Assembly (NCBI GenBank): GCA_965207225.1
Contig: CBDBLV010000003.1
Span: 32,001 to 96,000 of the forward strand
Length of the DNA stretch: 64,000 nucleotides
DNA from: Dehalococcoidia bacterium
GTDB lineage: Bacteria; Chloroflexota; Dehalococcoidia; Plut-88900
Reading direction: 5' to 3'
Shown here piece by piece: positions 10,024-53,283 of the stretch; the first letter of the stretch is position 1, and each line of letters begins with the position of its first letter. Below the pieces are notes generated by a model. The model did no database searches and was not told the origin of the DNA. It saw only the letters and a program-made list of their open reading frames with translations. Made by a program: the position numbers and the translations under genes.

Positions 10024-10051
10024 TCGAGGCTCAGGAATTTGAGGTGGTCAA

Positions 10052-18533: not shown

Positions 18534-20426
18534 ATGAGATGGATGTCGCCAAATGAAGCCTGTGGGCTGAAGCAAATCCCTCTGGCTCTAGCTTTGATTA
18601 TGGCGCTGTTTGTCCTGATCTCGTGCGACGATGATTCTATTCCATCCCCACAGCAGGACGCAAACGTCCCAGCCCCAGTCGCAGTGTTCCCATCCGAGTC
18701 AGATATTGAAACAGCCGCAGATGACAAGACAAGCTGGGATGCCTTCACTTCCATTAGCGCAGGAAGCACCCATAGCTGTGGAGTCAGGAACGACGGTAAC
18801 GTCATCTGCTGGGGAGACAGCGTCGGAGGGCAGGCCTCACCACCAACAGGCACGTTCACCTCGGTCAGCTCTGGATCGGCGCATACCTGCGGGCTCAGGG
18901 CAGACGGCTCCGTCGTCTGCTGGGGTGATGATTGGGAGGGTCGAGCCTCCCCGCCCGAGGGTGTCTTCATTTCAGTCAGCGTCGGACGACGTCACAGCTG
19001 TGGCGTGCGGGACGACAACTCCGTCGCTTGCTGGGGCTATGATGCACATGGCCGGTCTACTCCGCCTGAAGGCCACTTTATTGCAGTCAGCGCCGGGGAG
19101 AATCATACCTGTGCAGTGCGTGACAAAGGCACACTAGCCTGTTGGGGTTATGACAGCCATGTCCAGACTTCCCCGGGAGACAGTTTCATCTCTGTCAGTG
19201 TAGGGCGGCTCCACACTTGCGGGCTGAGAGAAGACGGCTCTTTCGTCTGCTGGGGTGGTGATCTTGATGGCCATGTCTCCCCGCCGGAATATCACTTCAC
19301 CTCGGTCAGTGTCGGGTCGTACCAAATCTGCGGCCTGAAGGATGACGCTTTCGTTACGTGCTGGGGTGATGATCCCTATGATCAGGCCCCCTTCGCTCAG
19401 ACTCCCACGCCGGAGGGTTCATTCATCTCGGTGAGCAGCGGGGGAAACCATACCTGCGGAGTTCGGGAGGATGCCTCTGTCACTTGCTGGGGCTATGACC
19501 GGTATGGTCAGGCTTCACCTCCCGCAGGCAGTTTTGCTTCCGTAGATGCAGGGGAATACCAAGTTTGCGCAGTTAGATACGACAAGTCTCTGGCCTGCTG
19601 GCGCGGAACTGAAATCGACATGCCAGCAGGCATCTTCGCATCAGTCAGTGCTGGAGGGCACCAAGTCCCGCGCCGTTGGAATCCTCCTGCCTGCACGCAA
19701 GAACCCTGTCCCACTCTGGTACCCCCGCCACCTTTTGAATCCCTCAGGCACACCTGCGGGGTGCGCGACGATGGTTCTATCGTCTGCTGGGGCAATGACG
19801 AATATGGCCAAGCCTCCCCGCCCGAGGACACGTTCATCTCTGTCAGTGCCGGGGGAAATCACACCTGCGGAGTGCGAGTCAACGGTTCGGTGGCCTGCTG
19901 GGGAAACGATACTCATAGACAAGCCAGCCCCCCATCAATGGCCTTCATTTCGGTTAGTTCCGGAGGAGGACATGGCCACGTTGGGCAGGCAGACCTAGTT
20001 GAAGCCGCCCACACCTGTGGGCTGAGGACAGACAGAGCCGTCGTCTGCTGGGGTGATGACCGGTATGGTCAAGCCTCCCCGCCCGAGGGCACATTTACGT
20101 CGGTCAGTGCGGGAGGCCACCACACCTGTGGGCTGAGGGACGATGGCTCCGTCGTCTGCTGGGGTGATGACTGGCATGGTCAGACTTCCCCACCGGAGGG
20201 CACATTCACATCCCTCAGTGCAGGAGGCCACCACACCTGTGGCGTGCGGGATGACGGTTCGATAGCCTGTTGGGGCAATGATTACGATGGCCGAGCCTCT
20301 CCGCCCCACGGCTCTTTTGTTTGGCTGGACTGCGGAGTGGGGCACTCCTGCGGGATAAGGGACAACGGTTCCATCATTTGCTGGGGAAGATTTGCAATGG
20401 TGGTACCCGCGGCATCTGGGCACTAG
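18534..20426 (+). CDS. RCC1-repeat lipoprotein
   Basis: Many SVSAG..HTCG.R.DGSV.CWG repeats; LISC lipobox. Confidence 0.9.
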   Translation: MRWMSPNEACGLKQIPLALALIMALFVLISCDDDSIPSPQQDANVPAPVAVFPSESDIETAADDKTSWDAFTSISAGSTHSCGVRNDGNVICWGDSVGGQASPPTGTFTSVSSGSAHTCGLRADGSVVCWGDDWEGRASPPEGVFISVSVGRRHSCGVRDDNSVACWGYDAHGRSTPPEGHFIAVSAGENHTCAVRDKGTLACWGYDSHVQTSPGDSFISVSVGRLHTCGLREDGSFVCWGGDLDGHVSPPEYHFTSVSVGSYQICGLKDDAFVTCWGDDPYDQAPFAQTPTPEGSFISVSSGGNHTCGVREDASVTCWGYDRYGQASPPAGSFASVDAGEYQVCAVRYDKSLACWRGTEIDMPAGIFASVSAGGHQVPRRWNPPACTQEPCPTLVPPPPFESLRHTCGVRDDGSIVCWGNDEYGQASPPEDTFISVSAGGNHTCGVRVNGSVACWGNDTHRQASPPSMAFISVSSGGGHGHVGQADLVEAAHTCGLRTDRAVVCWGDDRYGQASPPEGTFTSVSAGGHHTCGLRDDGSVVCWGDDWHGQTSPPEGTFTSLSAGGHHTCGVRDDGSIACWGNDYDGRASPPHGSFVWLDCGVGHSCGIRDNGSIICWGRFAMVVPAASGH

Positions 20427-20570
20427 CGACTGCTTGGCGATCTATTCGCTCGGCTTGCTGGTCGCACGACCTTAAGAGTAGTCCAAGAGAACTGGGCCTG
20501 CCGGATTCCGCCCACAGCCACTGACACGCAGCAGTTGCCCATCGAAGCGCTTCCTCGCTACAGTCAAACC

Positions 20571-22301
20571 ATGTCCTTGTCCGACCACCAGCTGCTCGAC
20601 GCACTTGCCCGGCTGCCCTTCGTCGAATCGACGGAACTGGCGCTCCTCCTGGGCGAGCCCCACGCGACCGTCCATCGCAGATTGTCCGAGCTGCTGACCG
20701 ACGGCGTCGTGGGGAAGGCCACCCACGGCACCGTCCACCTGCCGTCGAGCGGGAGATACTTCATCGCCGCCGACGGCATCGGCGAGACCGCCGACCTCCT
20801 GAGCTACGACACGCCCTCGGACTTCGTGCGGGCCTATCCCATGAGCAGGGAGTGGCTGAACCTGCTCCTGCGCCGCATGGACGCGGTGGCCGCAGTCTAC
20901 CGCCTGGCCGCCACCATGTCCCCCGGCTCGGATTCACATCAGACCCGCGTGGAGTTCCACCGCAAGGGGCGGTTCGACGCCGTGATCACCCTCCACGACG
21001 GCCGCAGCTTTGGCGTGGTGCGTCAGGGTCTCGCCCTGCGGCGGCGGTCCCTCTACGACCGGCTGAAGGCCATAGCGCAGTACAACCACAGCCGACGCCC
21101 CGACGTGATTCTCATCCTGGTGCCCAGCGTGTGGGAGCGGAGGCAGACGGGGAGCTTCTGCGAACGGGTCGATCTGACGGACTTCTTCATCGCCGTGGAG
21201 TCCAGGACCGCCCTGGAAAGACGGAACCGCCGCGTCTGGCAGGAGACGACGGGGTGGGTCGGGAACGTCTTCCACACGTTGGAAGATGTCATCTCCCGGG
21301 GCAGGACAGGCAGAAGACGACGCCCCCTCACCGCGTCGCCGGAGCGGAAGCGAGCTTCCCTGCCTCAACCTGAGCGGATGGTGCAGACCGCCCCGGCCTT
21401 CGGCCCCAGCCCCTCGGAGAAGCGGACGCTGGACCTGATCACCGACCACCCCATGATCCCCCGCGAGCACCTGGCCCTCTGGCTCGGCGTCTCCGATGGA
21501 AGACTCAGCCAGATGATGCGCAGCCTGGTGAAGACCTGGGGCCTCGTGGAGCGTCACGGCAAACGCGGAGAAGTTCGCTACACGCTGTCCGACGAGGGGA
21601 TACGCTACGTCACCCACCGGGACCGGGCGGAGCTGCCCACCACGCGGGGCATCTGGAGCACGGAGCTCACCACTGACAAAGAGGAACGCCCACGACACGT
21701 GGGGCACCGCATCGAGACGTGGGCGCGGCAGACGAAACACGCCGACGGCATCACCTGGTTCCTGTCGAAGCTGAAAGCCGAAACCCGTTCCGACCCCGAC
21801 AGCGCGCTGGTGTGGGTGGTTCCCACGGCCAGGTCGGACCGGGCCTACAACTGGGGCCGCTCCGCCATCGCCCCCGACGCCGTGGGGCATCTTCTCGCCG
21901 GTGGCCATCCCGTGCCCTTCTACCTTGAGCACGAGCTTAGAGCCCGTCACCCCAGGGGAGTGATCGCCCGCCTGGACCCCTACGAAGACTACTACTGGTC
22001 GAATGAGCAGAAAGAGGACCTGCCGCCGTACCCGGTCACGCTGTTCGTCGTGGACACCGAGGAGGTGGAGGAGACCTACGTGAGCACCGCAGGCCGGATG
22101 CACCGGATGTCGCTGCCCATCCTGGCGTCCTGCACGCCCGTGCTGTCACGCCGGGGGATACTGGGGGAGTCCTGGCGTCCCTTGTGGGAGCCGTCCTCCC
22201 CCCGACTGGCGTTGTCAGGGCTGAGCGTCTACCAGTGGGACGGTCTCTACCACCGGATGCGGCAGAGTCCTGTAGAGGCATCCTATAGAAGGGGGCGATA
22301 A
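20571..22301 (+). CDS. wHTH plus replication-relaxation-like (PD-(D/E)XK) protein, intact copy
   Basis: Two wHTH segments; C-terminal H...IAPDA...FYLEHE...Y..YY pattern like Replic_Relax; three paralogs in the window. Confidence 0.65.
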   Translation: MSLSDHQLLDALARLPFVESTELALLLGEPHATVHRRLSELLTDGVVGKATHGTVHLPSSGRYFIAADGIGETADLLSYDTPSDFVRAYPMSREWLNLLLRRMDAVAAVYRLAATMSPGSDSHQTRVEFHRKGRFDAVITLHDGRSFGVVRQGLALRRRSLYDRLKAIAQYNHSRRPDVILILVPSVWERRQTGSFCERVDLTDFFIAVESRTALERRNRRVWQETTGWVGNVFHTLEDVISRGRTGRRRRPLTASPERKRASLPQPERMVQTAPAFGPSPSEKRTLDLITDHPMIPREHLALWLGVSDGRLSQMMRSLVKTWGLVERHGKRGEVRYTLSDEGIRYVTHRDRAELPTTRGIWSTELTTDKEERPRHVGHRIETWARQTKHADGITWFLSKLKAETRSDPDSALVWVVPTARSDRAYNWGRSAIAPDAVGHLLAGGHPVPFYLEHELRARHPRGVIARLDPYEDYYWSNEQKEDLPPYPVTLFVVDTEEVEETYVSTAGRMHRMSLPILASCTPVLSRRGILGESWRPLWEPSSPRLALSGLSVYQWDGLYHRMRQSPVEASYRRGR

Positions 22302-22860
22302 CGTGATACATAGATAGCACCGATGCGTCGCTATCTGCCCTCCCTGCTGTCTGGGGGCCGTAAAAGTGGACATTTTGTCCAGTAGGCGGGGTCTGGAGGG
22401 GGCCGAAGACCGGTCATTTGCCCCTGATTCAGCTACGAAACGGCCTTTCGGACCCCTCGACCGGTCAACGACTGAAAATGCAAGTCTCGGAGAAGCTATG
22501 CTAAAATACGTCACCGCTCAAAACACGCCCGAATTGCACTTTTACCACCTCGACCGGTCAGCCGTTGGAGGGGGATTTAGCTACGGATGCCCCTGTCCGT
22601 GGAGTCTGAGGCATCGATTGGGACATGATCTGGAACTCCAGTGGCGTCCCCGGCCCACGTTGGCCCACCGGAAATTGCAGGAATTGAGGTGGGGGTGTGC
22701 GACGCGAAACGGGGTGGTGGGCAGGAACGGACATTTCGGGCCACGCAGGTTTGGATTTATGCAACGATCGGGGAGATTGGCTAAAAATTGTGACCGGTCG
22801 GTGTCAAGGGCTGGTTCCGCCGAAAATTGCAGAAGCGGCCCATCCCAATAGAGGACGAAA
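22302..22860. promoter_or_regulatory. Conserved non-coding cis region with four GACCGGTC palindromes (candidate ori/oriT)
   Basis: GACCGGTC at 22408, 22459, 22552, 22792; homologous to 31699-32245 and 47776-48305. Confidence 0.6.
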
Positions 22861-23328
22861 ATGACATCTCGGAAGTCGAAGATGAAATCGGGGGCCGGAG
22901 ACGTTAAGCCCGACCAGAAGTGGGTCGTGGAGTACCTCGTCCAGCGCGAAGGGCAGCGCAAGACGGCGGCCCTCCTGGGGGTGAACCGGAAGACGGTGGC
23001 CCTGGCCCTGAGCAAAGAGCGCTTGACGGGCAGGATGACCCTGGCCGTCAAGCGGTTCATGGCCAGCTTGGACGATCCCGATGGGGAGAGGGCGAGTCCC
23101 TTGGACAGGCTGGAGGCGAGGATACAGGTGGCGCTCGAAGTGGCGCACGAGCTGGCGGCGCTGGTGGAGAGCTTGACCCAGCGCGTCGAGGCCCTGGAGG
23201 CGGCGCGGCAGGAAGATGATGCCGGGGGCCGGGCGTCGGATGCGCCCGACGCCGGGGGCCGTGGTCTGCGCCTGTTGGACCGGTGGCGGAGACGGAGAGC
23301 GCAGGACGAGGACGAGAGCGATGGCTGA
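22861..23328 (+). CDS. HTH plus coiled-coil element protein
   Basis: GQRKTAALLGVNRKTV; three paralogs. Confidence 0.75.
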   Translation: MTSRKSKMKSGAGDVKPDQKWVVEYLVQREGQRKTAALLGVNRKTVALALSKERLTGRMTLAVKRFMASLDDPDGERASPLDRLEARIQVALEVAHELAALVESLTQRVEALEAARQEDDAGGRASDAPDAGGRGLRLLDRWRRRRAQDEDESDG

Positions 23329-23764
23329 GCGGGTGCGCTGGGTGGCGAAGGCGGAGGCGGCGCGGGAGATGGAAGTCTCCATCTCGACCCTTGACCGGAT
23401 GATCCGGCGGGCAGAGGTCGAGGTGCGCAGGGAAGGCCGCCGGGTTTACGTGCGGATCGAGGGGCCGGAGCGCGTGGACGACGAGGAACTGCTGCGCCGG
23501 GCTCTTGGCCGGGAGGACAAGCTTCAACGGAGGCTGGTGGATTTGGACCGGCGGGCACTGGCGTTGGAGCGGGAGCGGGACGAGGCGGTGCACGCCGCGT
23601 CCACCGACAGGCAGGCCCTTGAGGAGGTTGAGGAGGCGTATCAGAAGGAACGGGCCGGGCACGAGAAGACGAAGGAAGGACTCATCGCGGCCCGCGTGAC
23701 CGCCTTGGTGCTGTTAGCGCTGCTGATTGGCAGCGTTCTTCTGTGGTGGCTCGTGCTGAGATAG
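23321..23764 (+). CDS. Excisionase-like HTH, coiled coil and C-terminal transmembrane helix
   Basis: KAEAAREMEVSISTLDRMIRR; hydrophobic C-terminus; three paralogs. Confidence 0.7.
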   Translation: MAERVRWVAKAEAAREMEVSISTLDRMIRRAEVEVRREGRRVYVRIEGPERVDDEELLRRALGREDKLQRRLVDLDRRALALERERDEAVHAASTDRQALEEVEEAYQKERAGHEKTKEGLIAARVTALVLLALLIGSVLLWWLVLR

Positions 23765-23959
23765 AGACAGCGTCGCAGGCGCATCAATGCAGGGAGAACT
23801 GGCAGTGGGATTAACGTTGACTGTGACGCTTCGAGGTTGCCTCACCCGCGAGCTAAGTAATATGATTCAGATAGGTATCACCGAGTAAGCAGCGTGCGTT
23901 TGGCAAGCAAGGAACCGAATTGACAGAGGCGAGTTTGCACTGCGGGATCAGGTGTAGTT

Positions 23960-24445
23960 ATGGCCAATCCGCGGCACCCTGATAAGTTGATCTACCTCCA
24001 CGTGGCAAAAGGGAAGATATTGCCTCGGGTGGTCCCGCTTGTTGTGCTCATCGTCGTGTTCTTGGCCTCAGCCTGTGGATTGACTAACCAGGAAACCGCT
24101 CCAACACGCAAACATCTCACAGCCGAACAGTTCTACAATTCGTTGAAGAGTGAGCTCAAGAGCAATCCGACCCGGTTGAAGTCGTTGGTGGGTCAAGAGC
24201 TACGTCCCTTCGAGGGTGAAATAACCAATATCGAAGGAGCAAGCATCCAGTTTCACGTCGATAAACGCTTCCTCAGGAGGGACCACTACATAACATGCAC
24301 TTTTCGTTCGAGCACTGATGTAGTACCTCTCAACAACGGAGAATATGTAGCGGTACAGGGGGTACTAGAAGAAGCGTTTCCCAATTCCTTCATGGCCGAA
24401 GCTGGGGCAGTGAAACTCAGGAACTGTCGACAGGTCGATAGGTAA
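23960..24445 (+). CDS. Putative OB-fold lipoprotein
   Basis: ASAC lipobox; G..V.VQG...L.NC ending. Confidence 0.55.
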   Translation: MANPRHPDKLIYLHVAKGKILPRVVPLVVLIVVFLASACGLTNQETAPTRKHLTAEQFYNSLKSELKSNPTRLKSLVGQELRPFEGEITNIEGASIQFHVDKRFLRRDHYITCTFRSSTDVVPLNNGEYVAVQGVLEEAFPNSFMAEAGAVKLRNCRQVDR

Positions 24446-25127
24446 ATGGCCTGCAAATCCCCACCCTTCCCGTCACAGTAGAACCCCGTATCAGTCTCGC
24501 ATAAGTTTGTGGCCGGGACCAATGGTGATCGGGGAGTTTGGCGGTGTCTTGTGTCCCCCATTGGGAGGTGATCTGTGCATCTCCTCGAACTATGCCGTCG
24601 AGTACATGTCCGACGAGGTTGTTGTAGAGAAGCCATCATTCAAGGTAACGAGGAATACAGATGAGTGAAGATAAGGGTGAGCGTGTCGTAACACAAAAGG
24701 AGATCATGGGAAGCCTTGTGGCTGTCAGATCAGTGCTGGAGCGCGCGCTGAATCTGTTGACGCGCGAGCAGTTGCAGTTCATGCATGAGGTTGAAGCGGG
24801 CACTTACGTGCACTGTGGGGTGACCGGAGGCCTGATGACTTCACCTCCGGCATCTTAGAAGAGTATGACCGCCTCACGTTCAGGCTTCGTCATAAAGTGC
24901 ACCTCCTTGATACTGGCCAAAGGGAATCGCGGCGCAGTGATGCGATAGACCGGCAATCCTTCCGCCGTAAGTGTGAGATGCTGGCAGTGCCTCCTCTCTT
25001 GACCTTGCCAATTCGAGATGCCCGAAGTGTGGAAGTTACGAATTCCTTGAACTTATCTAGCGTCACGATGCCCCCGACGCTCACCTAAGTTGGGGGGAAT
25101 TGATACAGCGCCCGGAGTAGACTCTAC

Positions 25128-25178
25128 TTGACAATCGCCTCTCAATTCGGTCATGATACGAGTATGACGTGGTCATAC
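25128..25178 (+). promoter_or_regulatory. Sigma70-like promoter with palindromic operator
   Basis: TTGACA-N18-CATGAT followed by GTATGAC-gtg-GTCATAC. Confidence 0.6.
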
Positions 25179-25196
25179 AATAGGAGGTAGGAGAGA

Positions 25197-25394
25197 GTGC
25201 CCACGACCCGGAAGGCCATCACCTTCTCCATGCCTCCGGAGATGGCCGAGCAGGTGCAGCAGATGGTGAAGGAAGAGGGCCGCACCATGAGTGAGTTCCT
25301 CCGCGATGCCATCCGCCTATACATGGAGGAGCGGGAGTGGCTGCGGCAGGAGCGCCGCCAACGGGCGAATGCCCGCAGGAGCGACCAGGAATGA
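25197..25394 (+). CDS. CopG/ribbon-helix-helix regulator
   Basis: ITFSMPPEMAEQV...RTMSEFLRDAIRLY. Confidence 0.85.
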   Translation: MPTTRKAITFSMPPEMAEQVQQMVKEEGRTMSEFLRDAIRLYMEEREWLRQERRQRANARRSDQE

Positions 25395-25408
25395 GTAAGG
25401 AGGACGAC

Positions 25409-27073
25409 ATGACGAAGAAGCACCTACAGCCGCTGACACCGGCGGCGCTCTACGCCAGGGTGTCCAGCGACCGGCAGGACGTGGACCTGTCCGTGTCCGC
25501 CCAGCTAAGGGCGCTCAAGGAGTACGCGAAGGCCAACGGCTACTCCGTGGCCCGCGAGTACGTGGACGAGGCCGAGAGCGGCCGCGTCGCCGACCGGCCC
25601 CAGTTCCGAGAGATGATCGAGGAAGGCAGCAAGGCCAAGGCTCCTTTTGACGTGATTCTCGTCTGGAAGTTTTCGAGGTTCACCCGCAAGCGGGAGCACG
25701 CCGTGGCCTTCAAGTCCCAGCTCAGACGCAAGGGCATCCGCGTGGTGTCCATCACCGAACAGGCCGAGGACAACGCCACCGGCAGGCTGCTTGAGGGCAT
25801 CATCGAGAGCGTCGATGAATACTACAGCGAGAATCTTGCCCAGGAGGTCGTCCGGGGCATGAGAGAAGCCGCGTCGAGGGGCTTCTTCCTCGCCTCCAAC
25901 GCCCCCTTCGGCTACAGGAAGATCAAGGTGCAGGACGGTCCCAAGGAGCGCCCCTCGCTTGAGGTAGACCCGGCCACGGCTCCTGTAGTGAAGGAGATAT
26001 TCGAGAAGTCCCTGCGGGGCAGCGGCCTCAAGGAGCTGTGCAAGGAGCTGAACGACCGGGGCATCACCAACAGGGGGAAGCGCTGGTACAAGGGCGGTCT
26101 CCACTACGTACTGAGAAACGAGGCGTACACCGGCACCGCCGTCTGGGGCAAGACGAACAAGGGTGGCGAGGCACCGGACCCGGTGAGGGTTGAGGGAGCG
26201 TGGCCCGCCCTGGTTTCGAGGGAGCTGTTCGAGGACGTGCAACAGGCGATGAGCGAGCGTGCCCCGAAGGTGCAGAGGCCCGGTAGAGTGGGGAGCAAGT
26301 ATCTCCTGAGCGGGCTGCTCAAGTGCGGGGTGTGCGGCAGGCCCTACTCGGCCCAGGGAGCCAAGAGCGGCCAGTTCGCCTACTACATCTGCGGCACCCT
26401 GTTCAGGGAGGGAGCGGGGACGTGCAGCGCCGGCTACCTGAACGCCCCGAAGCTGGAGACCTTCGTGGTGGAGAAGATCAGGGAACGGATACTGAACGAG
26501 GAGACCATCGTGGCCCTGGTGCAGCTTGTGGCCGAGGAGACCGACGCCATGGCCGGAGAGCTGTCCGGCAGGCTGGAGGTCGTCGAGGCAGAGCTAGGGG
26601 ACGTGAGGAAGCGGCTTGAGAAGCTCTACGAGGCCATCGAGACCAGCGAGCTGACCGTTGAGGTCTTGTCGCCCCGCATCATGTCCCTGAGGCATCGTGA
26701 GGAGCAGTTGGAGGCTGCGAGAGAGGACGCCGAGACCCAGCTTGAGCAGAGGCGAGTGGAGCTGCCCGACACCGAGGAGATAGCCCGGTACGTGGCGGAC
26801 TTCCGGGACTTCCTGAAGGAGGGGACGATCCCGGAGAAGAAGGCGCTCATCCGCAATTTCGTGGAGGGCATCGAGGTGGCGGGAAACGATGCGACGCTGA
26901 CGTACACGGTCCCCATGCCGAGCGATGGGGTGACCAGGGAGTCGGCCTCGGTTCTTGATTTCGTCAAGTCCAGCCCACCAGACTTGACGGTAGACAGAAC
27001 CGGGGAGTGGAGAGCCACCTCCTCGGCGTCCCTTCCGCCTATCGGAGCATCCTCCGGCATAGGGATGGAGTAG
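25409..27073 (+). CDS. Large serine recombinase, type A
   Basis: YARVSS catalytic motif; recombinase domain; CGVCG..C..C zinc ribbon; AGGAGG RBS. Confidence 0.95.
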   Translation: MTKKHLQPLTPAALYARVSSDRQDVDLSVSAQLRALKEYAKANGYSVAREYVDEAESGRVADRPQFREMIEEGSKAKAPFDVILVWKFSRFTRKREHAVAFKSQLRRKGIRVVSITEQAEDNATGRLLEGIIESVDEYYSENLAQEVVRGMREAASRGFFLASNAPFGYRKIKVQDGPKERPSLEVDPATAPVVKEIFEKSLRGSGLKELCKELNDRGITNRGKRWYKGGLHYVLRNEAYTGTAVWGKTNKGGEAPDPVRVEGAWPALVSRELFEDVQQAMSERAPKVQRPGRVGSKYLLSGLLKCGVCGRPYSAQGAKSGQFAYYICGTLFREGAGTCSAGYLNAPKLETFVVEKIRERILNEETIVALVQLVAEETDAMAGELSGRLEVVEAELGDVRKRLEKLYEAIETSELTVEVLSPRIMSLRHREEQLEAAREDAETQLEQRRVELPDTEEIARYVADFRDFLKEGTIPEKKALIRNFVEGIEVAGNDATLTYTVPMPSDGVTRESASVLDFVKSSPPDLTVDRTGEWRATSSASLPPIGASSGIGME

Positions 27074-28557
27074 CGCAGCAAAGCATTGCCGGGCATGACC
27101 ACGATCTCCTTGACGAAGGACTCAATGAAGGCCCTGCGCTCCGTCAGTTCGCTCTTGTTGAGGAAGAGGCTCATGTCCTGGGCGTAGGCCGTGATGGTAT
27201 CCACGTCGTCCAGGACCTCCCTGCGCTGCGAGAGCATAGCCCTGGCCTCCTGCGCCGACATCTCCAGCTTCTCCTGCCGCTCCCGGTGGTCTCTGATGCG
27301 GGGCTTGAAGTCCTCGATGTCCAGGTCGGTGGTCTCCGCCAGGTCGTAGAGCCGTCCCAGCCTGCGCTTCACGTCATCAAGCTCCGACTCGATGGTCTCC
27401 AGCTTCTGCCGCTGCTCCCTGGCGATGCCGTCCATCTCCTCGTCTACCAGCTTCACCAGCTCCCGGATGTTGGAGTCGGTGAGCACATTCTGACGTATCT
27501 TCCCGACCACCATCTCCTCGAAGCGCCGTGCGTTGAGCCTGGGGGTCTCGCAGGCGTGCCTGCCTCGCTTCATGATGGACTGGCAGACGTAGTAGGCGTA
27601 CTTCCCGCTCTTGGCGTCCTGGCCGGAGAGCGCCCCGTCGCACGTCCTGCACCGGACCAGCCCGCTGAGCAGGTAGGTGCTTCCCACACGGCGCGGGTGC
27701 GCCTTCCTGGGGGCACGGGAGCGCATGCGCCTGTTCACTCTCTTGAACTGCGCTTTGGATATGATGCCGGGGAACGCTTTGTCCACCCTGACCGGCTCGT
27801 CCTTGCCCTTCCCGCCGACGCCCCAGAGAAGGGTTCCCGTGTAGGCTTCGTTGCGGAGGATGATGTGGACGCCGTTCTTGGACCAGAGCCTGCCGGTGGG
27901 GTTGGCGACGCCCTCGGCGTTGAGGGTCTGGGTGATGTCCAGGATGCCTCTGCCCGACTCGGCCATATTGAAGATGCGCTGCACCACGGGAGCGGTTGCG
28001 GGATCGGGCTCCAGGGTGGGGCGCTTCTTGGCCCCGTCCTGCACCATGCGCTTGCTGTAGCCGTAGGGCACCCGGCTGGCGACCCAGAAGCCGCGTGAGG
28101 CGGCCTCCCGCATCCCCCGCCGAACTTCTTCCGCCAAATTTTCGCTGTAGAACTCATCGACGCTCTCGATGATGGCCTCCATGAGCCTGCCGGTGGCGGA
28201 GTCGTCGGCGTGCTCGGTGATGGAGACGACGCGGACGCCCTTCCGTCTCAGCATGGACTTGAAGGCGACGGCGTGCTCCCGCTTGCGGGTGAAGCGACTG
28301 AATTTCCAGACCAGAATCTCGGCAAAAGGTGCCTCGGGCTTGCTGGCCTCGTCCAGCATCTTGCGGAACTCCGGGCGGTCGGCGATACGGCCGCTCTCAG
28401 CCTCGTCGATGTACTCCCTAGCCACGAAGTAGCTGTTCTTGTCGGCGTAGTCCCTGAGCGCCCTCAGCTGGGCCGCAACGGACAGGTCCACGTCCTGGCG
28501 GTCGCTGGACACCCTGGCGTACAGGGCCACCGGCGTGTTGTTATTCGTCTGTTTCAT
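26626..28557 (-). CDS. Large serine recombinase, type B
   Basis: YARVSS; CRTC..C..C zinc ribbon; the last ~115 aa read antisense into recombinase A. Confidence 0.95.
   Translation of the reverse strand: MKQTNNNTPVALYARVSSDRQDVDLSVAAQLRALRDYADKNSYFVAREYIDEAESGRIADRPEFRKMLDEASKPEAPFAEILVWKFSRFTRKREHAVAFKSMLRRKGVRVVSITEHADDSATGRLMEAIIESVDEFYSENLAEEVRRGMREAASRGFWVASRVPYGYSKRMVQDGAKKRPTLEPDPATAPVVQRIFNMAESGRGILDITQTLNAEGVANPTGRLWSKNGVHIILRNEAYTGTLLWGVGGKGKDEPVRVDKAFPGIISKAQFKRVNRRMRSRAPRKAHPRRVGSTYLLSGLVRCRTCDGALSGQDAKSGKYAYYVCQSIMKRGRHACETPRLNARRFEEMVVGKIRQNVLTDSNIRELVKLVDEEMDGIAREQRQKLETIESELDDVKRRLGRLYDLAETTDLDIEDFKPRIRDHRERQEKLEMSAQEARAMLSQRREVLDDVDTITAYAQDMSLFLNKSELTERRAFIESFVKEIVVMPGNALLRYSIPMPEDAPIGGRDAEEVALHSPVLSTVKSGGLDLTKSRTEADSLVTPSLGMGTVYVSVASFPATSMPSTKLRMSAFFSGIVPSFRKSRKSATYRAISSVSGSSTRLCSSWVSASSLAASNCSSRCLRDMMRGDKTSTVSSLVSMAS
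26950..27001. other. Head-to-head hybrid att site (A arm, core, B arm)
   Basis: GGTTCTTGATTTCGTCAAGTC-CAGCCCACCA-GACTTGACGGTAGACAGAACC. Confidence 0.85.
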
Positions 28558-28687
28558 GGGTGCGTTCCTCCTCCCAGACTACATACGGAGTCTTACTCAG
28601 TATCATGATGTATCCGGTCATTCATTGTCAAGGATCAGGAGTTTTGGAGGAGTTCCTTAGACGTAGAGCCAACTGATACTGACCTGC

Positions 28688-29971
28688 CTACCGGATCTTG
28701 CCAATCTCGTACTCCACGGCACTCAGTGACCCCCGCGCAGACTCCAGTTGTCGGGTAGATAGAAAGGCCCTTTGCTTCGCTTCGCTCCAAGTGCGCCTCC
28801 CCTTCTCAGAATAGAACAGAGCAACATTGTCGAGGCTTGCCACAAGCCTTTGGAAAGCCAGGTCGACGTCGCTGCATTCATACGGAGCAAGCGGCATGTT
28901 CGAAAACTCTTCTTCAATCTGGCTAATTCTAGTGCGTGATGCCTCGGTCCTCGACAAGAACACATCCTCCGAGACGATACCGTCTGTTAGCATGGCACTT
29001 TGTCCCTCTATCGCTGTAAGCAGCCCAGATATCTCGCATTTGAGCGAGAGGGCACTAGTGAGATACTCTGCCTTTGTCGCAGTGTTCTTAGCAACGTGTC
29101 GAGCCAGTTCTGTGTGCATTGAGTGCCAAGCAACGTATATGTGGTCTCCGATGTTTTCGCCGCACAAGTCTAACGGCCGATCTCGCTCGGGCAGATCAGG
29201 GTCAACCCAAAGACTGCGACAAACGGGGTTGCCTGTAGCGTAATCGTCGGCACTAGCATAGAGTGAAGTCCAGACGACCTTTGCCTCTGAGTCTCCCCAA
29301 CGGCCCTGGGTAAGGTGGTTCCGGTGGTATGTCCTCTTGGCACCGTCGTTCGTAAGCTGACGAACAATCGAAGCAACCTCAATTTTGTTCAAGGCTCCAT
29401 TCACAACCACTTTGAAGGAGCACCTCTTTGCCCCTTCGTGACTTACGTCCTTTTCTTCGAAGATGGTATACCGACTCACAGAAACGACCGGGGTCAAGAA
29501 GTCAACCAAAGTGGGTGCTGACGCAGAGTCAATCTTCTGGGACATCGGTATCAGGAGCTTGTAGCCTTTTCCTGTCGATATAGCTGTCTGTGAGTTTACA
29601 ACCTGCCAATAGATCTGACGATTGTCCACATCGCAAAGACACACTAGCACTGGCAGACAGTGATCAATCCAATAGTCAACGTGAGCACGGTCAGCTCTGA
29701 AAACGTAGGAATCGTCCTGTCGTTCGGTGAAGTAGCTCGGGCCGGACTTTAGTTGGATTCCTAGTAACCTGCCTGTAGCGTACTCAGCCTCAATTAATTC
29801 GGCATGAGCATCTATGCCATAGTCCGGAGCAGGTTGGGTTCTGAAGGCAAAACTGATGGCAACGAACTTGTCCATCGCCAATGCCACACCACGCTCCTCC
29901 ATTTGATGTGACTTGGGAGATTTCAAATCATCACCGCCCTTAGGAAAGCCTCTCCTATTGTCATCCAGCAT
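28688..29971 (-). CDS. DUF4365-type PD-(D/E)XK domain protein (possible defence)
   Basis: DYGIDAHAEL...IQLKSG...YW....PV; lower GC than flanks. Confidence 0.75.
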   Translation of the reverse strand: MLDDNRRGFPKGGDDLKSPKSHQMEERGVALAMDKFVAISFAFRTQPAPDYGIDAHAELIEAEYATGRLLGIQLKSGPSYFTERQDDSYVFRADRAHVDYWIDHCLPVLVCLCDVDNRQIYWQVVNSQTAISTGKGYKLLIPMSQKIDSASAPTLVDFLTPVVSVSRYTIFEEKDVSHEGAKRCSFKVVVNGALNKIEVASIVRQLTNDGAKRTYHRNHLTQGRWGDSEAKVVWTSLYASADDYATGNPVCRSLWVDPDLPERDRPLDLCGENIGDHIYVAWHSMHTELARHVAKNTATKAEYLTSALSLKCEISGLLTAIEGQSAMLTDGIVSEDVFLSRTEASRTRISQIEEEFSNMPLAPYECSDVDLAFQRLVASLDNVALFYSEKGRRTWSEAKQRAFLSTRQLESARGSLSAVEYEIGKIR

Positions 29972-30079
29972 ATCATCTGGTGGTATTGAAACGAACCTTG
30001 TACCATAGCTCGCTCCCCTAGACGCAGCCTACTCCTCAGACTTTACGAACTGCACTGCTAGGTGCCCGTAAGGGCGCGG

Positions 30080-30484
30080 TCACCCCTCCAGCGCCGACAG
30101 GAACCGGGGAGCGTTGAGGATTCTCACGCCCCGGTGTTCTCCAAGAGGCAGCAGATGCCGCCGGTCTCCGGTCACCAGGTAGTCTGCGGACGCCTCCACC
30201 GCGCACTCCAGGATGCGGTTGTCGGCGTGGCCTTCCCCGATGACCTCCGGCAGCCTGCGCGGGTAGATGACAGTGGCGGCTTTGCTCAACGTCCTGAGGG
30301 CCTCGGACGCGCGCTCCTCGTCCCAGTCGAACTTGCGTCGCAGTACCCCTGCGGCCTCCTCCAGGATGAAGGAGGACAGGTAGAGATCGAACCGTCCCCT
30401 GACGGCCAGTTCGAGCACCAGCCGCTCGTTGCCGGGGAAGTTCAGGCCCGAAACGATGACGTTGGTGTCGAGGACGACCCTCAT
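30080..30484 (-). CDS. PIN-domain toxin
   Basis: VVLDTNVIVS...DNRILECAV..ADYLVTGD. Confidence 0.9.
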   Translation of the reverse strand: MRVVLDTNVIVSGLNFPGNERLVLELAVRGRFDLYLSSFILEEAAGVLRRKFDWDEERASEALRTLSKAATVIYPRRLPEVIGEGHADNRILECAVEASADYLVTGDRRHLLPLGEHRGVRILNAPRFLSALEG

Positions 30485-30738
30485 GCACGGCCCGAGCCGA
30501 CCTCGGCCCGGTACTCTTCGACCAGATCGGCCACGTCCTCAGGGCCGATGCCCTTCTCCCTGGCCCGCTCCTCTCCGTACTGGAGAAGCTGCCGCCATTC
30601 CAACTCCTCGATGTAGCGCAGCAGCGCCTCTCGAAGGAACTCGCTCCTGGACTGCCCCTGCTGCTTCATCACAGCGTCCACCCGGTCCGCCATCTCCGGC
30701 GGCAGCGAGAAGGTGATAGTCTTGGTCGTTCGCGACAT
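30481..30738 (-). CDS. RHH antitoxin/regulator
   Basis: ITFSLPPEMA..SRSEFLREAL; overlaps the PIN start. Confidence 0.85.
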   Translation of the reverse strand: MSRTTKTITFSLPPEMADRVDAVMKQQGQSRSEFLREALLRYIEELEWRQLLQYGEERAREKGIGPEDVADLVEEYRAEVGSGRA

Positions 30739-30833
30739 GTGCGCTCCTTGTTAGTGAGTCTTACCACAATAATGCAACGACGGCTCAGCTCATGTCAATG
30801 TCAGATGGCCTGTAGAATAGCGTCTGCCCGCTC

Positions 30834-31268
30834 CTACGTGAACAGCTGCCATGTGAGCAGGCCGACGACCGCGAGCAGCACCACCACGGCCAGACCGAGC
30901 CTGACGGCCAACCGCCTCATACTTCTGCGGGCAGCCCGCTCGTTCTCGTACTCTTCCTCCATCTCCTCAAGCGCCTGCCGGTCGGCGGATGCGGCGTACA
31001 CCGCCTCGTGACGCTCCCGCTCCAACCCCTGCGCCCGCCGGTCCAGCTCCAACAGCCTCCGCCCAAGCTTCCCCTCCCGTGCGAGAGCCCGGCGCAGCAG
31101 CTCCTCGTCGCTCACCCGCTCCTGCCCCTCCATCCGCACGTAGACCCTCCGGCCATCCCTGCGCACCTCGACCTCTCCCCGCCGTATCATCCGGTCCAGG
31201 GTCGAGATGGAGACCTCCATCTCCCGCGCCGCCTCCGCCTTCGCCATCCAGCGCACCCGCTCAGTCAT
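30834..31268 (-). CDS. Excisionase-like HTH with TM helix (copy 2)
   Basis: Paralog of 23321..23764. Confidence 0.7.
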   Translation of the reverse strand: MTERVRWMAKAEAAREMEVSISTLDRMIRRGEVEVRRDGRRVYVRMEGQERVSDEELLRRALAREGKLGRRLLELDRRAQGLERERHEAVYAASADRQALEEMEEEYENERAARRSMRRLAVRLGLAVVVLLAVVGLLTWQLFT

Positions 31269-31698
31269 TGCTCTTGTCCTCGCACTGCGGCCTGCGCCGC
31301 CACCACCGGCTGAACAGGCGCAGCCCACCGCCCTCGGCGGCGTCCTGCTTCCGCGCCGCCTCCAGGGCCTCCACGCGCTCCGTCAGGTCATCCACGAGAT
31401 CCCTGAGATCATCCACAGCTTTGACCGTCCGCCGCATCCGCTCCTCCAGCCTGTCCAGGGGCGTCGTCCTCTCCGCATCTGGATCGTCCAGGCCGGCCAT
31501 GAACCGTTGCACGGCCAGGGCCATCTTCCCCGTCAAGCGCTCTTTGCTCAGCGCCAACGCCACCGTCTTCCGGTTCACCCCCAGGAGGGCCGCCGTCCTG
31601 CGCTGTCCCTCCCGCTGGACGAGGTACTCCACGACCCACTTCTGGTCGGGCTTGCCGTCTCCGGCCCTCGTTTTCATCTTCGACTTCCGAGAGGTCAT
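31261..31698 (-). CDS. HTH plus coiled-coil protein (copy 2)
   Basis: Paralog of 22861..23328. Confidence 0.75.
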   Translation of the reverse strand: MTSRKSKMKTRAGDGKPDQKWVVEYLVQREGQRRTAALLGVNRKTVALALSKERLTGKMALAVQRFMAGLDDPDAERTTPLDRLEERMRRTVKAVDDLRDLVDDLTERVEALEAARKQDAAEGGGLRLFSRWWRRRPQCEDKSND

Positions 31699-32245
31699 TT
31701 TCGTCCTCTACAGGGGTGGGCCGCATTTGCAATTCTCTGCGGAACCAGCCCTTGACAGCGACCGGTCACCATTTTCGGCCAAACCCCCGAAATGTTGCAT
31801 AAATCCAAACCTGCGTGGCCCGAAATGTCCGTTCCTACCCACCACCCCATTTCGCGTCATGCACCCCCACCTCAATTCCTGCAATATCCGGTGGGCCACC
31901 CTGGGCCGCGGACGCCGCCGAAGCGCCGATTTTGCTCCTCATAGACGCTTTAGACCCGCATCCGTACCTACATCCCCCATGATCGGCTGACCGGTCAGGG
32001 TGGTAAAAGTGCAATTCCGGCGTCTCCGGAGAGCGCCCTAACTTTAGCACAGCTTCTCCCCAACTTGCATTTTTTACCGTTGACCGGTCGAGGACGTTGC
32101 AGCCCCTTTTGTAGCTGAATTAGGGGAATATGACCGGTCTTGGGTATTTCAGGAGCCCGGCGGATGTACAGCTTGTACCGTTTTGCGGCTCCCAGACGGC
32201 AGGGAGGGCAGATAGCGTTGCATCGACGCTATCTATGTGCCACGG
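31699..32245. promoter_or_regulatory. Conserved cis region (copy 2, inverted)
   Basis: GACCGGTC at 31760, 31989, 32082, 32132. Confidence 0.6.
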
Positions 32246-33975
32246 TCATCGCCCCCTTCTATAGGATGCCTCTACAGGACTCTGCCGCATCCGGTGGTAG
32301 AGACTGTCCCACTGGTAGGCGCTCAGCCCTGACAGCGCCAGTCGGGGGGAGGACGGCTCCCACAAGGGACGCCAGGACGCCCCCAGTATCCCCCTGGGTG
32401 ACAGGACGGGGATGCAGGACACCAGGACGGGCAGCGACATCCGGTGCATCCGGGCGGCGGTATTCACGTAGGTCTCCTCCACTTCCTCGGTGTCTACCAC
32501 GAACAGCGTGACGGGGTACGGGGGCAGGTCATCTTTGTGCTCATTCGACCAGTAGTAGTCTTCGTAGGGCTCCAGGCGGGCGATCACTCCCCTAGGGTGG
32601 CGGGCGCGAAGCTCGTGCTCGAGGTAGAAGGGCACGGGATGGCCCCCGGCGAGAAGGTGCCCAACGGCGTCGGGGGCGATGGCCGACTGTCCCCAGTTGT
32701 AGGCCCGGTCGGACCTGGCGGTGGGGACAAGCCATACAAGCTCACTGTCGGGATCGGAACGGGTCTCAGATGCAAGCTGCGAGAGGAACCAAGTGATGCC
32801 GTCCGTGTGCCTCGTCTGCCTCGCCCACGTCTCGATGCGGTGGCCTACGTGCCGGGGGCGGCCCTCTTTGTCGGTGGTGCGCTCCGTGCTCCAGATGCCC
32901 CTCGTGGTGGGCAGCTCGGCCCGGTCCCGGTGGGTGACGTAGCGTATGCCCTCGTCGGACAGGGTGTAGCGCACCTCGCCCCGTTTGCCGTGACGTTCCA
33001 CCAGTCCCCAGGTCTTCACAAGGCTGCGCATCATCTGGCTGACGCGTCCCTCGGAGACGCCGAGCCAGGTGGCCAGGTGCTCGCGGGGGATCATCGGGTG
33101 GTCGGTGATCAGGTCCAGCGTCCGCTTCTCCGAAGGGCTGAGGCCGAAGGCGGGTGACCCCCCCACCAGGCGCTCAGGTTGAGGGAGTGAAGCTCGCTTC
33201 CGCTCCGGCGACGCCGTGAGGGATGTTCGTCTTCTCCCCGGCTTGCCCCGGGAGATTACCCGCTCCAGCGTCAGGTACGAACGCCCGGACAGCCCCGTCG
33301 TCTCCTGCCAGACGCGGCGGTTCCGTCTTTCCAGGGCGGTCCTGGACTCCACGGCGATGAAGAAGTCCGTCAGATCGACCCGTTCGCAGAAGCTCCCCGT
33401 CTGCCTCCGCTCCCACACGCTGGGCACCAGGATGAGAATCACGTCGGGGCGGCGGCTGGAGTCGTAGTGCGACAAGGCTCGCAGCCGGTCGTGGAGGGAG
33501 CGCCTGAGCAGGGCCAGGCCCTGGCGGACGATACCTAAGTCTCGCCCATCGTGGAGGGTGATGACGGCGTCGAAGCGGCCCTTGCGGTGAAACTCCACGC
33601 GGGATCGGAGCCCGTCCGTGCCGGGGGACATGGTGGCGGCGAGGCGGTAGACGGAGGCCACCGCGTCCATCCTGCGGATGAGCAGCGTGAGCCACTCCCT
33701 GGACATGGGTAGGCCCGCACGAAGTCCGAGGGCGTGTCGTAGTCCACGAAGTCGGCGGTCTCCCTGATGCCCTGCGGCGTCAGGCAGTATCTTGCGCTCG
33801 ACGGCAGATGCACGGTGCCGTGGGTGGCCTTCCCCACGATGCCGTCGGACAGCAGCTCGGACAGATAGCGGTGGACGGTTGCGTGGGGCTCGCCTAGGAT
33901 GAGCGCCAGATCCGTCGATTCGATGAACGGCATCCGGCTGAGGGCGTCGAGCAACCGTCGGTCTGACAAAGACAT
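32246..33975 (-). pseudogene. Replication-relaxation-like protein (copy 2) with a 1-bp frameshift
   Basis: TACCCATG here versus TATCCCATG/TACCCCATG in paralogs at ~33708; the N-terminus MSLSDRRLL is in another frame. Confidence 0.75.
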
Positions 33976-34224
33976 GCGTTGAGCGTAACGAGGAAGCGCA
34001 TCGGTGGGCAACCGATACGTGTCAGCGGCGGTGTGGCGACTCTGGCGGGCATTCCACTTAACATCAACGAGGTTTTTCTTCTTCCGACAGGTGGTGGACC
34101 CGGGTACTTTGCAAAACGTTGGTGCAAGGGGTTTTGTAGTAGGACACAGGGCTCTGTGCGGTTGCTGCCAAGTAGTCTCACTGCTATAGTGAGGCTGCCT
34201 TAGTCCTCGTGCCGGAGAAAGGGA

Positions 34225-35100
34225 ATGGAATTCGTAGACAGAATTGTGGAAGGAAATTGCCAGCAGGCCCTTAGGGACGTGCCTGACAATTCGGTTGATC
34301 TTATATTCACTTCGCCGCCTTACGCTGACCAGAGGAAAAGCACCTACGGCGGAATAAAGCCTGACGATTACGTGGAATGGTTTCTTCCCAAGGCTGACCA
34401 ATTCTACCGCGTCCTGAAGCCGTCCGGTACGTTCATCCTCAACATCAAAGAGCGCGTCGTCAATGGAGAGCGTCACACCTACGTGATGGAGTTGGTGCTT
34501 GAGATGCGTAGGCGAGGTTGGCTATGGACTGAAGAGTTCATCTGGCATAAGAAGAACTCATACCCCGGCAAATGGCCCAATCGGTTCAGGGACAACTGGG
34601 AACGCCTTATACAATTCAACAAGCGAAAAGACTTCAACATGTACCAGGAAGAGGTGATGATACCCGTAGGAACCTGGGCAGAGCATCGCCTCTCAAATCT
34701 CAGTGATACAGACCAGATCAGAGACGAATCCAAGGTGGGCAGCGGGTTTGGCAAGAACGTATCCAATTGGCTTGGTCGAGACAAGGTGTATCCCAATAAC
34801 GTCCTCCACATGGCCACTGAGTCTTCAAACAAGAACCACAGTGCCGTCTTTCCCGTTGCGTTGCCCACCTGGTTCATCAAGCTTTTCACCCAACCCGAGG
34901 ACCTAGTGCTGGACCCTTTCCTCGGTTCCGGAAGCACGGCGGTGGCCGCTCTCAACTTGGGCAGACACTTCCTCGGCATCGAAATCAACAGCGAGTACGC
35001 GGAGTTGGCCAGGGAACGGGTGCTAAGGGCGGGGGACGCCATACCCTCGGTCAACGGGGCTGAGATGGCGGATGAGGCAATGCAGGGGGTCGCTGGATGA
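34225..35100 (+). CDS. Beta-class N4/N6 DNA methyltransferase
   Basis: TSPPY precedes DPFLGSGST. Confidence 0.9.
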   Translation: MEFVDRIVEGNCQQALRDVPDNSVDLIFTSPPYADQRKSTYGGIKPDDYVEWFLPKADQFYRVLKPSGTFILNIKERVVNGERHTYVMELVLEMRRRGWLWTEEFIWHKKNSYPGKWPNRFRDNWERLIQFNKRKDFNMYQEEVMIPVGTWAEHRLSNLSDTDQIRDESKVGSGFGKNVSNWLGRDKVYPNNVLHMATESSNKNHSAVFPVALPTWFIKLFTQPEDLVLDPFLGSGSTAVAALNLGRHFLGIEINSEYAELARERVLRAGDAIPSVNGAEMADEAMQGVAG

Positions 35101-35858: not shown

Positions 35859-35880
35859 CTGAACACACCCTCGTGAGCAT

Positions 35881-35989
35881 CTAGAGTCCCATCCACAATT
35901 CGAAGATAGTTCTGCCTACCGTCAACTCAGGCCCACCAGACTTGATAAAATCAAGAACCTTCGCGTTGAAGCTCGTGTTGGACCTGTAG
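35881..35989. other. Tail-to-tail hybrid att site (35908-35959) with both orphan recombinase 3' ends
   Basis: AGTTCTGCCTACCGTCAACTC-AGGCCCACCA-GACTTGATAAAATCAAGAACC; + strand DLIKSRTFALKLVLDL*, - strand ELTVGRTIFELWMGL*. Confidence 0.85.
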
Positions 35990-36055
35990 GCTGAGCCTTG
36001 TCCTGTTCCCGTTGAGAGAGGGCCCCCCAAGGAGAGGTGAGGAAAGGCTGGACGT

Positions 36056-38464: not shown

Positions 38465-38559
38465 GTTGCCACCCGCCAGACAATCTTGAGCAACGAGGGG
38501 ATAAGAATACCGCCCATTGTACCGCAGACGTTGTCAAGGTCTGCTGACCGTCAGAAATC

Positions 38560-38610
38560 TTTGATGGTTCTTTGATGGAAACGGGGCTGTTTTTGATGGG
38601 CATTTGATAC
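38560..38610 (+). promoter_or_regulatory. Four TTTGAT(GG) direct repeats, candidate OmpR-family operator
   Basis: Copies at 38560, 38571, 38592, 38603 (spacing 11/21/11). Confidence 0.65.
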
Positions 38611-38655
38611 GAGCCGCCTATGGTGGCCGGTATCACTATCTGTAGGAGGTGTGAG

Positions 38656-44131: not shown

Positions 44132-44143
44132 GAGTTAAGCCCC

Positions 44144-49170: not shown

Positions 49171-49180
49171 GGTATAGCGC

Positions 49181-53224: not shown

Positions 53225-53283
53225 GAGCGTCGCAGTGACGGACGACACGACTGAGGGAACAGACGATTCCAGAGGAGGACGAC

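Follow-up and report, generated by a model that had tools for sequence, protein, structure and literature searches.

Convergent serine recombinase genes at a probable junction of tandem integrative elements behind a tRNA gene in a Dehalococcoidia genome

The tandem ssrA islands of Dehalococcoides appear, by analogy, to be the closest precedent for the locus examined here. As set out in the sections of McMurdie et al. 2011 that describe them (PMC3146451), these islands stand in tandem behind the transfer-messenger RNA (tmRNA) gene, with a CcrB-like large serine recombinase (LSR) of ~540 aa, DsiB, located by attL on the reverse strand. According to the same sections, the 3' end of the DsiB open reading frame (ORF) contains the attachment (att) site, the frame is closed only by a stop codon within the adjoining island or within ssrA, and accretion was proposed (PMC3146451). 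In the present work, we analyze a window of 64,000 nt from a Dehalococcoidia bacterium (positions 32001-96000 of contig CBDBLV010000003.1, called C3 here, in an assembly of 4.03 Mb and 5 contigs). A preliminary description of this window had noted an LSR gene pair in convergent orientation, present twice (A1/B1 and A2/B2), and had proposed that the two enzymes of a pair co-operate in one synapse. We will argue that the meeting point of A1 and B1 is, as judged from the sequence, a junction of two tandem elements, the right end of an A element standing against the left end of a B element, and not a two-enzyme unit. The reading that we favor, and that we hold with good confidence, is a tandem array of independent integrative elements in which the convergent pair marks the junction of A and B elements behind a tRNA gene. 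The attractive but unneeded heterotetramer mechanism is thereby replaced by a documented one, namely element accretion at a tRNA site.

Compared with the Dehalococcoides islands by the published description of DsiB, the present elements belong to the same bacterial class and are likewise arranged in tandem behind a gene for a small stable RNA, and the LSR ORF overlaps the att site and has its stop in the neighbor, as DsiB does. Within the limits of that description, they differ from the ssrA islands in four ways. The targets are many tRNA genes (seven kinds beside LSR genes) and not a single tmRNA gene; att-site arms and enzymes fall into at least four specificity types; the A type has its gene at the distal end, which produces the convergent overlapping pairs; and the backbone is a Replic_Relax module, where the islands have ParB/Mom. 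No DsiA-like small serine recombinase was found among the window ORFs scanned, which do not include every small ORF. The only window matches to the A protein at E<=1e-20 are the four LSR genes, and the neighboring ORFs scanned carry other domains. The present results would extend the ssrA-island pattern to a widespread Dehalococcoidia family.

Phage-type serine integrases, such as those of Bxb1, phiC31 and A118, use imperfectly palindromic att sites of ~50 bp, which become hybrid attL and attR sites after integration, and each is directed to a single attB, which in most cases lies within a protein gene. Serine integrases catalyze recombination between attP and attB, an activity that is predicted for A and B here. 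The present elements are like the phage-type systems in domain order, in att size and in the presence of hybrid sites, and their enzymes would be serine integrases that accept many tRNA genes as attB, given the seven tRNA kinds found beside B-like genes. A survey of thousands of LSRs defines their targets, in its main text, as protein genes, and the word 'tRNA' occurs there 0 times (PMC10083194). We found no description of LSR arrays targeting tRNA ends in Chloroflexota in the literature searched. Cargo-carrying integrative elements at tRNA genes, with tandem junctions as here, are represented by the tycheposons of Prochlorococcus; unlike the present elements, LSR-bearing ones are a minority there, as 910 of 937 use tyrosine recombinases in the part of the preprint that gives these counts (bioRxiv 10.1101/2020.12.28.424599).

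The ORF coordinates confirm the convergent LSR pair at both places in the window (Table 1). In a Pfam scan of A1 and B1, the resolvase catalytic domain PF00239 is found with E-values of 1.7e-33 and 4.9e-32, respectively, and PF07508 (Recombinase) and PF13408 (Zn_ribbon_recom) exceed their cut-offs in both proteins, C-terminal to the catalytic domain; the same three domains are assigned to A2 and B2. Matches to the PDB are mainly confined to the catalytic domains. The motif YARVSSDRQ, in which we take the nucleophile serine to lie, is invariant among the LSR types aligned.

The preliminary description had also stated that the catalytic domains of A and B are near-identical while the other domains diverge, and an alignment evaluated by column range bears this out, with 80-84% against 37-49% identity. 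In the catalytic domain, 119 of 149 positions (79.9%) are identical between A1 and B1, and 125 of 149 (83.9%) between A2 and B2. The corresponding values for the two pairs are 49.2% and 48.5% in the Recombinase domain, 46.3% and 49.3% in the zinc ribbon, 42.6% and 48.1% in the coiled coil, and 37.1% and 40.0% in the last 35 columns. Copies of the same type are 88-96% (A1/A2) and 92-98% (B1/B2) identical per domain. The shared motifs quoted earlier are present. However, when six LSR types of this genome are aligned (A, B, the solitary B and three more), the catalytic domain is near-invariant and ILVWKFSRFTRKREHAVAFKS invariant in all of them, while the C-terminal halves and the tails vary. Because this conservation is common to all six types, the A-B pair is not singled out by it, and the likeness of the A and B catalytic domains is, on this alignment, a trait of the whole LSR family. 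What is unusual is the divergence of the DNA-binding halves and of the arm middles, which greatly exceeds that of the element backbone with its 83-88% DNA identity.

The sites at which the genes meet are built from type-specific arms around a core. We use a for the arm with the middle TGATTT, b for that with the middle GYCTAY, c and d for further types, and a prime for an inverted right-hand arm. The a arm reads GGTTCT-TGATTT-CGTCAAGTC, and the b' arm is the reverse complement of GGTTCT-GTCTAC-CGTCAAGTC; the two arm middles that had been reported, TGATTT and GTCTAC, are thus present in site 1 and again in site 2. Site 1 lies exactly where the coding changes strand. Site 3 has the same core with the arms exchanged, which makes it the reciprocal hybrid junction, and its core agrees with that of sites 1 and 2 at 8 of 10 bases in direct and at 3 of 10 in reversed comparison, showing that the orientation is the same. 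The 28-nt inner palindrome pattern has 3 occurrences against 0.04 expected. The features by which LSR att sites are recognized are found here in the length of 52 bp, in the arm swap around a constant core and in the empty-site comparisons given below. A constant core with swapped arms fits reciprocal hybrid sites, which could have arisen either by recombination of a-core-a' with b-core-b' or by serial insertion at one target.

Table 1. Coordinates, in the window unless marked C3, of the recombinase genes, att-like sites and elements
Feature	Coordinates	Strand	Remarks
LSR gene A1	25409-27073	+	ORF, 554 aa; right-end gene of element E_A1
A1, conserved part	25409-26980	+	residues 1-524, ends ..VLDFVKSSPP
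A1, read-through tail	26981-27073	+	30 codons; from the neighbor's b' arm and antisense of the B1 3' end
LSR gene B1	26626-28557	-	ORF, 643 aa; left-end gene of element E_B1
B1, conserved part	26974-28557	-	residues 1-528, ends ..VLSTVKSGG
B1, read-through tail	26626-26973	-	115 codons and stop; antisense to the A1 coiled-coil region; serine-rich shadow frame
LSR gene A2	53284-54948	+	tail from 54856
LSR gene B2	54501-56432	-	tail below 54849; longest ORF start 56456; left-end gene of element E_B2
Site 1	26950-27001	+	a-core-b', 52 bp; hybrid junction, E_A1 right end / E_B1 left end
Site 1, a arm	26950-26970	+
Site 1, core	26971-26980		10 nt, CAGCCCACCA
Site 1, b' arm	26981-27001	-
Site 2	54825-54876	+	a arm, core and b' arm as in site 1; junction E_A2 / E_B2
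Site 3	35908-35959	+	b-core-a', intergenic; junction, E_B1 right end / E_A2 left end
Site 3, far b arm	35908-35928
Site 3, core	35929-35938		AGGCCCACCA
Site 3, a' arm	35939-35959
Element E_B1	26976-35933	-	~9.0 kb; B1 at left end, far-end b arm at the other
E_B1, DUF4365 gene	28688-29971
E_B1, PIN/RHH toxin-antitoxin pair	30080-30738
E_B1, module M	30833-34050
E_B1, methylase and EcoO109I-type endonuclease	34225-35858
Element E_A2	35934-54850	+	~18.9 kb; A2 at right end; histidine kinase/response regulator, LRR protein, DUF4928 and C5 methylase, module M (46202-49171), UvrD-like helicase, SIMPL, antidote protein
Element E_B2			B2 at left end; far-end b arm beyond the window, at C3:106863 (window coordinate 74863)
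Module M of E_A1	20496-23764	+	Replic_Relax protein (20535-22301) and two small ORFs

Sites 1 to 3 divide the window into units with one LSR per element, at one end. The site junctions separate the E_A from the E_B elements, in agreement with the earlier remark that the partners sit on separate elements. To place the junctions in the context of the genome, 24 further arm sites were aligned with the three of the window. When the elements are reconstructed, both ends are formed by a-type arms in type A and by b-type arms in type B, and two more LSR types, C and D, likewise have their own arms. The element ends thereby support the suggestion that each enzyme goes with its own arm type.

The overlap of the two ORFs, which amounts to 448 nt in both pairs, appears in this light as read-through. 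By codon-position GC content, the real coding switches strand at ~26900-27080, and the GC follows the A frame to ~26900. The two overlapping frames share the third codon position, where the GC content (GC3) is 0.8-0.97, and the antisense frame is therefore open by composition. Neither the A nor the B ORF has a stop codon ahead of the crossover; each therefore runs into its neighbor to a chance stop, which gives the 448-nt overlap, and the ORF ends are thus set by the neighbor. Solitary copies behave in the same way. Those of A match only to residue ~525-535, which corresponds to the position of the core, and the sequence after CCACCA is unrelated among them, so that the A tail differs from copy to copy. 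For a solitary B gene at tRNA-Lys, the identity to B1 is 94% through ..VKSGG; thereafter, where this gene reads the antisense of the tRNA, the two are unrelated, and the tails of B-like genes in general change with the neighbor. It is important to point out the consequence for annotation: in these integrase ORFs, the final 30-115 codons derive from read-through into the neighbor and do not belong to the enzyme.

The LSR census, with the A protein as query and a threshold of E<=1e-60, covered this genome and its order (12 genomes). Arms were searched with up to three mismatches allowed and with reversed patterns as controls, and the genome-wide and cross-genome counts were tallied by eye from the search tables. 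This genome contains 34 LSR matches, with ~13 of A type (87-100% identical) and ~17 B-like (51-58%), and seven convergent A/B pairs are among them. There are 25 matches to the a arm and 24 to the b arm, compared to 0 for the reversed controls. Thirteen b' arms stand beside B genes; seven adjoin an a arm, five adjoin the 3' end of a tRNA gene (..GGTTCGARTCC......CCCACCA) and one is ambiguous. The a arms beside A genes, also 13, adjoin b' in seven cases, a degenerate b' in one and unrelated unique sequence in five. At the far ends, the 12 a' arms adjoin a far-end b arm (seven) or a c arm (three) or are ambiguous (two), and the far-end b arms are followed by a' (seven), c' (one), d' (one) or unique sequence (three). 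When 10 B-like loci were scanned with ARAGORN, seven were found to have a tRNA gene directly beside them, for tRNA-Ile, Lys, Val(GAC), Ala, Met, Val(TAC) and Gln. Exact 21-nt b arms are located at tRNA-Ala, Lys and Val(GAC), which means that one enzyme type uses several tRNA genes.

Insertion at tRNA ends is supported by two empty-site comparisons. On contig C2, a solitary A gene is followed by a 1.5-kb flank that has orthologues in all eight of the eight same-genus genomes. In two genomes with 0 LSR matches (G006 and G007), tRNA-Lys(CTT) is directly upstream of this flank; in the present genome, the distance from the tRNA-Lys with its b' arm to the a arm with the native flank is 95,006 bp, with seven LSR genes or fragments in between. 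The second comparison concerns a congener, G004, in which one A element of 25.9 kb, with a single LSR match inside it, lies between tRNA-Val(TAC) plus an a' arm and an a arm plus flank. In G007, the same flank, 90% identical, comes immediately after tRNA-Val(TAC). These two genomes together show that A elements with a arms at both ends can occupy a tRNA site without an adjacent B.

The same arrangement can be followed in further genomes. The confirmed related loci number 386; of the best 80, almost all come from assemblies of Dehalococcoidia or other Chloroflexota, and several bear sponge-derived labels. In 28 of these best 80, the match to A extends to residue 552 or beyond, which corresponds to read-through into a convergent LSR. 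An alignment of 14 of the 28 shows a conserved a arm and core next to a right arm that is b-like (nine), d'-like (three) or c'-like (two), and in all 14 the right arm is followed by the antisense of an LSR C-terminus. The a arm with core occurs in 17 of 401 genomes of the class. Among the 30 junctions listed there, the right partner of a is b-like in 12, c' in four, d' in three, another arm-like sequence in one and unique sequence in 10, with a' in 0; among the 28 b-arm junctions listed from 151 genomes, b is followed by an a'-like arm in 14, by unique sequence in 10, by d' in two and by c' and b' in one each. Counting arm-type partners only, among these junctions listed, 12 of 20 partners of a are b-like and 14 of 18 partners of b are a'-like. 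A strict rule of heterotypic junctions only was considered and rejected because of the one b-core-b'-like junction, which is found in G002 (C1:1595632). A truncated b-a' remnant is present in G007 (C1:177399), a genome with no LSR match at E<=1e-60. Another genome, G005, has a convergent overlapping pair of two non-A LSR types (C1:158258-161391; 55% and 54% identical to A, both to residue 552), and another type may thus also carry its gene at the distal end.

The number of LSR matches in this genome, 34, compares with 0-11 in its 11 relatives of the order, and three same-genus genomes have none, which indicates a recent burst of LSR elements in this genome.

The mechanism that we propose builds on what is seen directly, that is, the sites, the arm swap, the solitary copies, the empty sites and the variable tails. 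There would be at least four specificity types (A, B, C and D), in each of which a divergent DNA-binding half would go together with arms that match it on either side of the attP, such that attP_A would be a-core-a' and attP_B b-core-b'. The core GCCCACCA, common to all types, would be equivalent to the 3' end of a tRNA gene including the CCA, and integration would take place at the 3' ends of tRNA genes. In every attP, the left arm would mimic a tRNA end (GGTTC ... GCCCACCA), so that each insertion would leave a new target-like site and the elements would pile up. The tRNA-proximal junction would keep the tRNA half, and the distal junction would again be target-like, allowing other types to insert alongside. 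The recombinase gene would be at the tRNA-distal end in A and at the tRNA-proximal end in B, C and D, and an A element followed by a B element would in that case give genes facing each other across a-core-b'. Serine integrases are directional, in that hybrid sites are refractory. An enzyme unable to use hybrid sites with its own arm would lead to the near-absence of same-type junctions, and in this genome neither a-core-a' (at up to three mismatches) nor b-core-b' was found (0 each). Same-type tandems could also vanish by repeat collapse in the assembly or be lost via homologous recombination. We infer that recombination between the attP of a given type and a tRNA-like attB is carried out by a homotetramer of its own enzyme, and we also infer the order of the insertions and the crossover dinucleotide, which would be the central CC of the core.

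A broader form of this proposal can be put forward only tentatively. In it, a generic integrase family for tRNA 3' ends (T-arm and CCA) would have split into orthogonal types of enzyme and arm, each of which targets the ends of other types and, owing to the directionality of serine integrases, not its own hybrid ends. Arrays would then grow almost only by type alternation, up to a length of ~95 kb, and a 4-Mb genome would accumulate over 30 integrase genes. Enzyme types that vary together with their arms might be of use as orthogonal integrases.

It is important to note that a number of results weigh against an array of independent elements. A and B are each other's commonest neighbors, a bias that would also fit a specific A-B interaction, and 0 of the 12 far-end a' arms in this genome are directly at a tRNA, which fits mixed A/B tetramers too. 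Within the order, all four of the four genomes that have A also have B-like LSRs, and help in trans from B is therefore possible. The tRNA that should anchor the array of the window, which extends at least from C3:11.5k to 106.9k, was not found in the window, in C3:1-32000 or in C3:96001-108000. At the left end of E_A1, no a' arm was found between C3:24.9k and 58.9k (window and C3:12001-32000), and the junction with the preceding B element seems to be lost or degenerate. The attP_A pattern gave 0 matches in the metagenome and viral contig collections and the attP_B pattern 0 in the viral contigs, but the metagenome collection has only one contig with any a-arm junction (a-b'), so that these nulls are uninformative. 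Finally, no excision joint or circle was found in the contigs, which are short, of four public runs over 22000-41999.

A lone match at 16124 was considered as the left end of E_A1 and rejected, since it is a half-match inside an ORF. The contigs of the public runs end at 35917 and resume at 35935, around the core of site 3. The runs containing the sequence are mostly labeled as sponge metagenomes. In one of them, X19, the summed contig depth is 3286-11651 over the LSR genes (25335-28669), while the cargo bins of lowest depth have 22-37; in the community of this run, the LSR sequences occur in highly repeated form.

The neighbor bias bears most directly on the possibility of a facultative mixed synapse. 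Here, a resident enzyme on its own arm of a hybrid end, such as B on the b arm of b-core-flank, would join an incoming enzyme bound to its attP, such as A on attP_A, in a mixed tetramer, which would bias, but not be obligatory for, the insertion of A beside B and of B beside A; stated more boldly, the near-identical catalytic domains of resident and incoming enzymes may mediate such tetramers and thereby drive the bias. The 80-84% identity of the A and B catalytic domains speaks in its favor, and so do the strength of the mutual bias, the missing a' arms at tRNA genes in this genome and the count of a-core-a' junctions (0 in this genome and 0 of the 30 listed from the 401 genomes). We nevertheless consider this scenario unlikely. 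The same catalytic conservation is found in all six types, A is also followed by c' and d' arms, and A and B each occur alone at tRNA sites. Moreover, the bias is also expected if each enzyme accepts the arm of the other type, and not its own, as a tRNA-like attB half-site.

Another option is that an A and a B element move together as one circle, with an attachment site a-core-b' bound by one A and one B subunit. The 95-kb array on C2 has a B gene next to the tRNA and an A gene at the opposite, distal end, and an a-core-b' site would arise if it were excised whole; the 28 of the best 80 loci elsewhere that read through into a convergent LSR can be quoted for it as well. Serial insertion gives the same layouts, however, and A has more than one kind of right partner (b', c', d' or unique sequence). 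The A1/B1 and A2/B2 pairs flank different cargo, and single A and single B elements exist, and a composite unit is on this basis quite improbable.

In the strongest form of the co-operation hypothesis, the pair would be an obligate two-recombinase system with only an A2B2 tetramer being active, in the manner of CcrA and CcrB of the staphylococcal cassette chromosome mec (SCCmec), whose genes are co-oriented in one element and both needed, as summarized in the island study (PMC3146451). The type-specific arms, the divergent DNA-binding halves and the conserved catalytic domains would suit such a system. The claim that A and B must act in one synapse is not supported, however. Genes of B type, 94% identical to B1, stand without A at tRNA 3' ends (five such junctions in this genome), the solitary A element of G004 comes with its empty-site control, and 4 of the 12 genomes of the order have B-like LSRs but no A. 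In addition, A has b', c', d' or unique sequence on its right in other genomes, and the catalytic conservation extends to six types. The loose likeness to CcrA and CcrB that had been pointed out consists in the presence of two LSR paralogues, with CcrB as the best-scoring curated model in NCBIfam. The scores of the two proteins are far below the cut-offs, however (171.9 and 135.7 bits against 900 for CcrB; 85.6 and 93.5 against 700 for CcrA), and the genes are not in one operon as they would be in SCCmec, being convergent on different elements with the element junction between them, and each also occurs alone. We find an obligate pair barely credible.

A DNA inversion switch, with the sites as inversion sites and the inverted M modules marking the invertible segment, can be practically dismissed: inverted repeats of 0.3-1.4 kb do flank the pair, but the inverted modules are the backbones of oppositely oriented elements, and since the cores of sites 1-3 all have the same orientation, recombination among them would delete and not invert.

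We now turn to the contents of the elements assigned by the favored reading of a tandem array. The 3.3-kb module M of E_A1 is 83-88% identical at the DNA level to the copies at 30833-34050 (-) and 46202-49171 (+), and a fourth Replic_Relax gene is found at 59007-61046 (-). Three elements have three different methylases (two N6/N4 and one C5; 16324-18530, 34225-35858 and 44144-46167), and the known or candidate endonuclease partners of these methylases are the EcoO109I-type enzyme and DUF4928. The cargo appears to be largely of defense type, with restriction-modification systems, the PIN/RHH (ribbon-helix-helix) pair, the antidote protein, DUF4365 and the UvrD-like helicase; as the elements carry restriction-modification systems, toxin-antitoxin pairs and helicases, the arrays would act as defense-gene islands.

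Three small RHH-type genes are related to each other (..ITFS.PPEMA..; 25197-25394 (+), 57608-57832 (-) and 30481-30738 (-)), one being directly upstream of A1 and one paired with the PIN gene. Just left of the module M of E_A1, at 18534-20426 (+), a 630-aa protein with repeats of ~37 aa (111-nt period) and the motif ..HTCG(V/L)R.DGS..CWG.. is encoded, which looks like a beta-propeller. A much larger ORF of 2839 aa lies at 1460-9979 (+), with a GC3 of 0.93 and internal repeats, namely seven copies of a 300-nt unit, four of them in tandem at 327-nt spacing (8426-9706), and ~510-nt repeats at 1602-4677; its product resembles a giant surface protein of repetitive build. Between the first and the last 203 nt of the window (1-203 and 63798-64000), the identity is 92%, probably as a result of the similar content of two B-type elements in the array. 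The GC content of the window falls from 0.71 to 0.59 at ~10000.

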